Of a DNA stretch of 24,000 nucleotides, positions 17,879-17,928 are shown in pieces; position 1 is the first letter of the stretch; every line of letters starts with the position of its first letter. The DNA is from Thermodesulfobacteriota bacterium B35. Its GTDB lineage: Bacteria; Desulfobacterota; Desulfobulbia; Desulfobulbales; Desulfobulbaceae. Made by a program: the position numbers and the translations under genes. The notes under the pieces are model-generated. The model saw only the letters and a list, made by a program, of their open reading frames with translations. It was not told the DNA's origin and searched no databases. The DNA is taken from assembly GCA_046599375.1 (NCBI GenBank), contig JBKIWM010000002.1:503001-527000 (forward strand), written 5' to 3'.

Positions 17879-17906
17879 TATTATCTGCACATCTGTTCAG
17901 ATAATA
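17879..17906. promoter_or_regulatory. 12-2-12 ArsR/SmtB-type operator (minus strand ATTATCTGAACA-GA-TGTGCAGATAAT)
   Basis: The half-sites are inverted repeats matching at 11 of 12 positions, and the outer 9 bp TATTATCTG / CAGATAATA are perfect. The CTGAACA..TKCAGAT core resembles SmtB/CzrA-type operators. The site overlaps the predicted -10 element. Confidence 0.7.
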
Positions 17907-17928
17907 CCACCTGCAGCGGATTCTGCAA
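17901..17928 (-). promoter_or_regulatory. putative sigma70 promoter of the arsR-permease-hgcAB operon (TTGCAG-16 nt-TATTAT)
   Basis: On the minus strand the -35 TTGCAG is at 17923-17928, the spacer is 16 nt, and the -10 TATTAT is at 17901-17906. This lies ~135 nt upstream of the arsR ATG. Confidence 0.5.

Follow-up and report, generated by a model that had tools for sequence, protein, structure and literature searches.

A 12-2-12 palindrome that overlaps the predicted promoter of arsR in Thermodesulfobacteriota bacterium B35 is likely to be the operator of a CadC/SmtB-type repressor, which would be encoded by the first gene of the very operon that it controls, would be released by metal, and would hold not only its own gene and a metal permease but also the mercury methylation genes hgcAB under this control. 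Predicting methylmercury production calls for knowledge of what controls hgcAB, and the only tested case of hgcAB regulation, in Pseudodesulfovibrio mercurii ND132, involves a different ArsR protein, whose DNA site is not described in that paper. The locus reported here, which lies in a stretch of 24,000 nucleotides (hereafter the window), provides a concrete, testable promoter-operator in a Desulfobulbaceae lineage and points to Zn, Cd, Cu and other thiophilic metals as the predicted class of effector.

From what we observed, namely the anatomy of the site, a conserved promoter and operator, the assignment of the proteins to families and overlapping genes, we infer repressor binding, a transcription start, a type of inducing metal and a lack of internal promoters. 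In the proposed mechanism, a single sigma-70-type promoter (TTGCAG, 16 nt, TGgTATTAT) would drive the operon, with a -10 element whose first base precedes the operator and whose other five are the outer bases of its left arm. A repressor dimer bound to the operator, from about -11 to +15, would block RNA polymerase. Once a thiophilic divalent metal (candidates being Zn, Cd, Pb, Cu and possibly Hg) had bound to a Cys site (C9/C13/C60/C62) and/or an Asp/His site (D103/H105/H116/E119), the repressor would be released, which would de-repress arsR, the SO_0444-family permease and, via translational coupling (ATGA), hgcA and hgcB. Methylmercury production in Thermodesulfobacteriota bacterium B35 would thus probably be switched on by metal stress.

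Putative promoter, candidate operator and leader

The region upstream of arsR contains the following features:

18013-17984, minus strand: intrinsic terminator of the HisKA-domain gene, a perfect 9-bp inverted repeat (GGCCGCACC-12 nt-GGTGCGGCC) followed by TTTTT
17928-17923, minus strand: candidate -35 element TTGCAG, in the same register as the TTGACA box of orthologous loci
17909-17901, minus strand: candidate extended -10, TGg plus TATTAT (TATTAT at 17906-17901), with TG at -15/-14
17905-17880 (17906-17879 with flanking bases): candidate 12-2-12 operator, ATTATCTGAACA-GA-TGTGCAGATAAT as read on the minus strand, at predicted positions -11 to +15
17894-17767, minus strand: predicted 5' leader of about 128 nt, its start (predicted TSS at about 17894) placed from the -10 position
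17790-17773, minus strand: repeat box AACAGTTCACCGCTTTCG, with its end 7 nt 5' of the arsR start codon, at the place of a Shine-Dalgarno sequence
14669-14652 (minus strand), 20062-20084 (plus strand) and 21212-21234 (plus strand): further copies of the repeat box

The promoter that the sequence-only reading had named, TTGCAG and TATTAT 16 nt apart on the minus strand, can be read directly at 17928-17901, with aatccgctgcaggtgg as the spacer. Its -10 hexamer agrees with the consensus at five of six positions and is preceded by TG. The -35 element is degenerate and shares only three of six positions with TTGACA, which is why a consensus promoter scan of the window made no call for TTGCAG-16-TATTAT.

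The palindrome, 139 nt 5' of arsR, overlaps the -10 element. Its arms are complementary at 11 of 12 positions, as had been claimed, with position 9 (A versus C) as the lone mismatch. The nine perfect outer base pairs of the same claim are likewise present, if the flanking T17906/A17879 are counted (TATTATCTG/CAGATAATA); within the 12-2-12 itself, the outer 8 bp are perfect. The left core, TGAACA, is canonical, and the right core reads TGTGCA where sites of the published type would give TGTTCA. By chance, the 24-kb window should contain about 0.05 12-2-12 palindromes of this quality (at least 11/12); four were found, among which 17905-17880 is the sole AT-rich one (31% GC versus 62% for the window). 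The other three, at 3197-3222, 7108-7133 and 21816-21841, are GC-rich (e.g. GGGCGTTGAGACAGATCTCAACGCCC) and are probably hairpins or terminators. A degenerate operator pattern matched once in the window, compared to no match in 100 shuffles, and a search of the window by weight matrix gave no second operator copy of the kind seen in SmtB S1/S2 and S3/S4.

Upstream, 284 nt separate the HisKA-domain ORF (end at 18051) from arsR. The terminator at 18013-17984, which insulates the arsR promoter from read-through, was missed by the terminator scan because its loop is longer than 8 nt. Two terminator-like hairpins that the scan did call, at 17931-17908 and 17919-17907, are not conserved in relatives and were discarded. 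The minus-strand genes further upstream comprise a histidine kinase gene, a fatty-acid hydroxylase-family gene and the HisKA-domain ORF. Two paralogous DUF4118-HisKA sensor genes, at 18051-18767 and 20019-21191 (both minus strand), flank the hydroxylase-family gene; the nearer one (238 aa) lacks an ATPase domain, and the arrangement is syntenic in the relatives L081-L083.

The leader had been described as about 127 nt long, devoid of a Shine-Dalgarno sequence and bounded by a repeat box directly at the ATG. Its length (about 128 nt) holds, as does the lack of a purine-rich Shine-Dalgarno sequence before the ATG at 17766, where the sequence is cgctttcgcacaccATG; the box itself ends 7 nt short of the start codon. 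A riboswitch or other structured leader was rejected, as Rfam returned for the leader at E<=1 only a sub-threshold sRNA match (18.9 bits versus a cutoff of 100) and its fold energy equals that of shuffled sequence (z = -0.03). The distance from palindrome to start codon has a median of 18 nt in orthologues and reaches 100 nt or more in 3 of 77; close relatives have about 25 nt (L082) and about 60 nt (L084, L001) of unrelated sequence there. The long leader without Shine-Dalgarno sequence is common only to the window and its 99% relative (L081). The repeat box is likewise present in L081 and absent from the 81-83% relatives, and because the repeat is shared with the 99% relative only, we regard this leader as a recent, lineage-specific change that stands outside the regulatory design.

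The repeat box (consensus AACAGTTCACCGC[CT][AT]TCGGCAAC) occurs four times in 7 kb of the window. Three copies precede genes, at 7-40 nt from the start codons of arsR, the hydroxylase gene and a histidine kinase gene, the fourth lies just 3' of hgcB, and a companion motif, ACAGTTGGCA, is found at 17847 (minus strand) and 20038 (plus strand). A sigma-54 reading of these TGGCA-containing boxes was dismissed, as there is no TTGC at the right spacing and two copies are on the wrong strand. An N-terminally extended ArsR starting at ATG 17874 (155-aa ORF) was rejected as well, given that homologues begin at MKK/MKR. The stretch upstream of ATG 17766 differs from L081 by two substitutions, both non-synonymous, and an open frame across the 36 codons 5' of arsR is not unusual by chance.

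Regulator and permease

Four tightly packed genes, all on the minus strand, follow the promoter:

17766-17407, minus strand: arsR, CadC/SmtB-like metalloregulator of 119 aa (PF01022, NF033788), its ATG start backed by homologues
17404-16175, minus strand: SO_0444-family Cu/Zn efflux permease with a Cys/His-rich C-terminal tail (NF033936, PF03773)
16178-15048, minus strand: hgcA (NF040863, 438 bits, cutoff 275)
14981-14700, minus strand: hgcB ferredoxin with Fer4 domains (NF040864, 108.3 bits, cutoff 99)

The first gene encodes an ArsR winged-helix protein (PF01022, 61 bits, cutoff 22; NF033788, 100 bits, cutoff 55) with thousands of homologues (about 119-126 aa), and the N-termini of these speak for a start at ATG 17766. 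Its closest solved structures are SmtB (E=1e-24), CadC (E=9e-19), CzrA and NmtR. The earlier assignment as ArsR/CadC-like is borne out in detail: C9, C13, C60 and C62 align with C7, C11, C58 and C60 of the alpha3N site of CadC, residues D103, H105, H116 and E119 have their aligned counterparts in the alpha5 sites of SmtB (D104/H106/H117/E120) and CadC, and SmtB has the very same recognition helix, SESAVSHQLR. In 30 homologues C9, C60 and C62 are invariant, and the four alpha5 ligands are invariant among homologues. Cysteines occur only at positions 9, 11, 13, 60 and 62, and the extra C11 creates a CxCxC motif.

The permease scores 400.9 bits against NF033936 (cutoff 300) and 151 bits against PF03773 (Pfam ArsP_1), carries a CSC motif (IPLCSCGV) and ends in the Cys/His-rich tail CGCFSGSCASGHEHHGRHQDHHHDTCGCG. 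By these family scores it is an SO_0444-family Cu/Zn efflux transporter and not an arsenic pump. Shewanella needs SO_0444 when under stress from Zn and Cu (PMC3219624), and in Nitratiruptor, Cd and Cu induce a member of the family (PMC10092412). Judged from the equivalog score and these Zn, Cu and Cd data, the arsR-permease cassette is a thiophilic-metal efflux unit rather than an arsenic operon. With an SO_0444-family gene intervening between arsR and hgcA, the inducing signal is therefore likely to be Zn, Cd, Cu or another thiophilic metal, not arsenic.

This cassette is widespread. A scan with one genome per species gave 80 arsR loci, mostly from Desulfobulbales MAGs and comprising 685 kb in all, and in 78 of them the same permease lies directly 3' of arsR. 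In the genome collection, the combination of CadC-like regulator and SO_0444 permease was found in at least 597 places. The genes downstream of the permease are heterogeneous, and no conserved third gene that hgcAB could have replaced was found among them.

hgcAB as a probable part of the operon

Only 2 nt separate the arsR stop from the permease ATG. The start codon of hgcA (ATG, 16178-16176) runs into the stop codon of the permease (TGA, 16177-16175) to give ATGA, a 4-nt overlap that L001, L028 and L082 have as well. No convincing terminator was detected within the arsR-hgcB operon. Given the overlap of permease stop and hgcA start, hgcAB are very probably co-transcribed with arsR and the permease.

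The distribution of the site shows to which genes it belongs. The promoter and operator had been ascribed to hgc, yet hgcA is also present in only 3 of the 80 arsR loci (L001, L028 and L044). A metagenome scan with an HgcA alignment gave 80 further loci (47-63% identity), and only three of these have the permease upstream of hgcA: L100, L085, where the arsR side is cut off by the contig end, and L090, which encodes a permease-HgcA fusion without arsR. The 12-2-12 site was found only where this arsR is present, namely in L100 among the 80 HgcA loci, and in L081-L084; none of the 80 HgcA loci has such a site directly upstream of hgcA, and no hgcA locus that lacks this arsR has one. Because the site occurs only with this arsR and never directly before hgcA, the operator is a property of the widespread arsR-permease cassette, to which hgcAB have been appended in few lineages. 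Conversely, the search for the palindrome at orthologous hgc loci that had been suggested as a check found it in every arsR-permease-hgcA locus (L001, L028, L044, L081-L084 and L100). The full arsR-permease-hgcA-hgcB order is visible in L082 and L084, while the contigs of L001, L081 and L083 end within or just after hgcA. L044 is the only hgc-linked locus without direct permease-hgcA coupling; here, a 441-aa ORF with an acyl-CoA dehydrogenase-like look (6354-7679, plus strand) lies between the two genes.

The late addition of hgcAB to the cassette, which is suggested by their absence from 77 of 80 arsR-permease loci, gives room to an alternative: The operator might be real for arsR and the permease, with hgcAB transcribed for the most part from a promoter that is internal or constitutive and methylation largely independent of the repressor. 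A lineage of permease-HgcA fusions without arsR or operator, in which HgcA is independent of this regulator, would agree with such an arrangement, as would a weak promoter-like match 5' of hgcB (15029-15002). We nevertheless consider it unlikely, as the conserved ATGA overlap leaves no intergenic space for a promoter, the permease gene contains no coding-strand promoter-like site before hgcA, and arsR and hgcA are co-transcribed in both ND132 and BerOc1 (PMC7438021 among sources). Control of the whole operon from the promoter upstream of arsR is the more probable reading.

Conservation of the candidate operator

We searched the 300 nt 5' of each of the 80 arsR homologues for inverted repeats, making no use of the window sequence, and about 35 of the 80 loci gave a 12-2-12 palindrome of the same kind, TGAnCA-NN-TGnTCA (e.g. 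TATATATGAACAATTGTTCATATATA, AATATATGAACATCTGTTCAGATATT and TCCATATGAGCAACTGCTCATATGGA). A position weight matrix (PWM) built from 16 of these palindromes matched 5' of arsR with 15 bits or more in 77 of the 80 loci and gave only one, marginal match (15.0 bits) elsewhere in the 685 kb; as the PWM was drawn from the same locus set, these scores are partly circular, while the seed sites are independent of the window. Double matches in six loci are 8-nt register shifts. The window operator is the sole match in the window and scores 25.2 bits, which places it in the lowest 27% of orthologues.

Across the 77 loci, the operator consensus is aATATaTGArCAnnTGyTCAtATATt, with T7, G8, A12, T15 and A20 invariant and A9, T18 and C19 conserved to 95-97%. 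Most loci have a TTGACA box 17-18 nt before the palindrome, which is perfect in 41 of 77 (anchored on the palindrome). This spacing implies that the -10 element takes its last five bases from the start of the left arm and only its first base from outside the palindrome. The hexamer reads TAATAT, TAGTAT, TATTAT or TTATAT in orthologues, and the window has the same arrangement. The claim of an ArsR/SmtB-type 12-2-12 operator over the -10 element thus extends, with the same palindrome and the same register relative to the -35 element, to 77 of 80 loci.

The close syntenic relatives, with ArsR identities of 99% (L081), 83% (L082 and L083), 82% (L001) and 81% (L084), allow a finer view. In five to six of them, CTTGC[AG]GAA...TGGTATTAT-palindrome-AAAA is conserved as a footprint between fully diverged flanks, and TGGTATTAT is invariant. 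The -35 element of this clade is TTGCAG or TTGCGG, and the TG of the extended -10 is invariant; it plausibly offsets the weak -35.

At operator position 18, the window has G, where 75 of 77 orthologues (97%) have T and none has G. Taken at face value, this right half-site makes the operator of the window a weakened copy, and its affinity may be reduced. Basal expression may be relatively high, given the weakened operator and an arsR without Shine-Dalgarno sequence; together with a -35 element that matches at only 3/6 positions, the same traits suggest that this species may have a leaky version of the system. Taken further, they could mean that the operator has decayed in this species, with a mutated right half-site and a poorly translated arsR that leave the operon effectively constitutive. 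The low PWM rank, the repeat box in place of a Shine-Dalgarno sequence and the degenerate -35 would all be compatible with decay; against this, the mirror deviation (C at position 9) is found in L016 and L076, which both have intact cassettes, every other conserved operator position is intact in the window, arsR retains all ligands and DNA-reading residues, and the clade-wide extended -10 TG plausibly compensates for the weak -35. Complete decay therefore appears improbable to us, and a functional operator is retained as the preferred reading.

The least credible alternative is that the AT-rich repeat arose by chance, forms an RNA hairpin or binds some unrelated factor, for instance Fur. It draws on outer hexamers (ATTATC/GATAAT) that resemble Fur-box hexamers and on the terminator-like hairpins called nearby. 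It can practically be dismissed, as the site tracks arsR in 77 of 80 loci and is essentially absent elsewhere, the orthologous arms read ATATAT rather than GATAAT and are separated by 14 nt instead of being adjacent, relatives do not share the nearby hairpin, and the leader RNA folds no better than shuffles and has no Rfam match. With ATATAT arms and the wrong spacing, the Fur-box reading was rejected. The operator motif as defined here for the cassette of CadC-like regulator and SO_0444 permease could be used for annotating regulons.

Comparison with known metal-responsive systems

SmtB/ArsR-family 12-2-12 sites are known for alpha3N/alpha5 sensors, e.g. AATACCTGAACA-GA-TGTTCAAGTATT in Anabaena, and repressors of the SmtB, CzrA, ZiaR, AztR and AzuR type are released by metal (PMC8790569). 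Like the sites of these repressors, which have a TGAAnA-NN-TnTTCA core, the window operator is an imperfect 12-2-12 palindrome at the promoter or transcription start of a metal-efflux or sequestration gene, and the regulator shares its recognition helix with SmtB. Unlike in these systems, the right half-site is TGTGCA instead of TGTTCA, the transporter belongs to the SO_0444/ArsP_1 family and is not a P-type ATPase, CDF transporter or metallothionein, and the operon also carries hgcAB.

CadC is a repressor that is encoded in an operon under its own control; within cadCA, the second gene codes for the regulator, whose partner is a P-type ATPase. The four alpha3N cysteines and four alpha5 ligands of S. 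aureus pI258 CadC (PDB 1U2W) all align with the window regulator, but the two proteins are only about 30% identical and the window regulator has the additional C11. The SO_0443-SO_0444 pair of Shewanella oneidensis resembles the window in that a permease of the same equivalog shares an operon with its own metal-sensing regulator (PMC3219624), and differs in that this regulator is ZntR-like (MerR family, an activator) and hgcAB are absent.

ArsR-like genes are located 5' of hgcA in about half of the confirmed bacterial methylators (PMC10349881; PMC7438021). In ND132, ArsR2 controls hgcAB, and de-repression raises hgcAB transcripts; ArsR2 responds to As and SAH, and homologues of it were found in Desulfovibrionaceae only. 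The contrast with a constitutive hgcAB that the sequence-only reading had drawn is therefore outdated. ND132 has in common with the window an ArsR-family gene upstream of hgcAB, but its arsR2 lies directly before hgcA with no permease between. The ArsR2 site is given in the paper as C47/C49/C86/C88, whereas the window protein has no Cys after C62, a comparison that was made by the described pattern. ArsR control of hgcAB is thus a known concept, to which this regulator type, its DNA site and the probable effector class are additions, since ArsR2 differs in Cys pattern and gene context and the ArsR2 paper describes no operator or promoter.

A possible link between permease and HgcA

In L090, a single 758-aa ORF (3795-6071, plus strand) combines an SO_0444-family permease (aa 15-339) with HgcA (aa 426-756), and both halves score above their NCBIfam equivalog cutoffs. 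Four further, diverged permease-HgcA fusions of 696-760 aa (68-82% identity) come from different data sources, so that the set comprises five diverged protein clusters (P0121-P0125; loci L165-L168). The fusion lineage is syntenic, with a divergent ABC-F ATPase gene followed by the fusion, hgcB and two methyltransferase genes, and neither arsR nor the 12-2-12 site was found in its loci. Natural fusions and the conserved ATGA overlap, both features of gene arrangement, suggest a functional link between permease and HgcA, for which we found no published description in the literature searched. Coupling and fusion of the two proteins offer a lead on the route of Hg to or from the methylation enzyme.

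One could go further and imagine hgcAB not as a passenger but as part of a metal-induced 'methylate-and-handle' module, in which the permease delivers Hg(II) to HgcA or exports methylmercury and the CadC-like sensor switches the unit on; the conserved ATGA coupling and the independent fusion lineage speak for such a module, which we consider possible but doubtful. It is with the same reserve that we envisage the Cys/His-rich tail of the permease to abut HgcA in such a module, and thiophilic metals, possibly Hg(II), to act as inducer.

Two observations concern the sequences of these proteins. The 46-aa N-terminal extension of the window HgcA contains no Cys, while a CC or CU (selenocysteine) motif is reportedly present in the N-terminal extensions of many other HgcA proteins (bioRxiv 10.1101/2022.07.06.499078). 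In L167 (3476-5785, plus strand), the permease N-terminus was called as a separate 69-aa gene that ends at about the CSC motif; this split may reflect an in-frame TGA encoding selenocysteine, and a USC variant of the SO_0444 family has been described (bioRxiv 10.1101/2022.07.06.499078).
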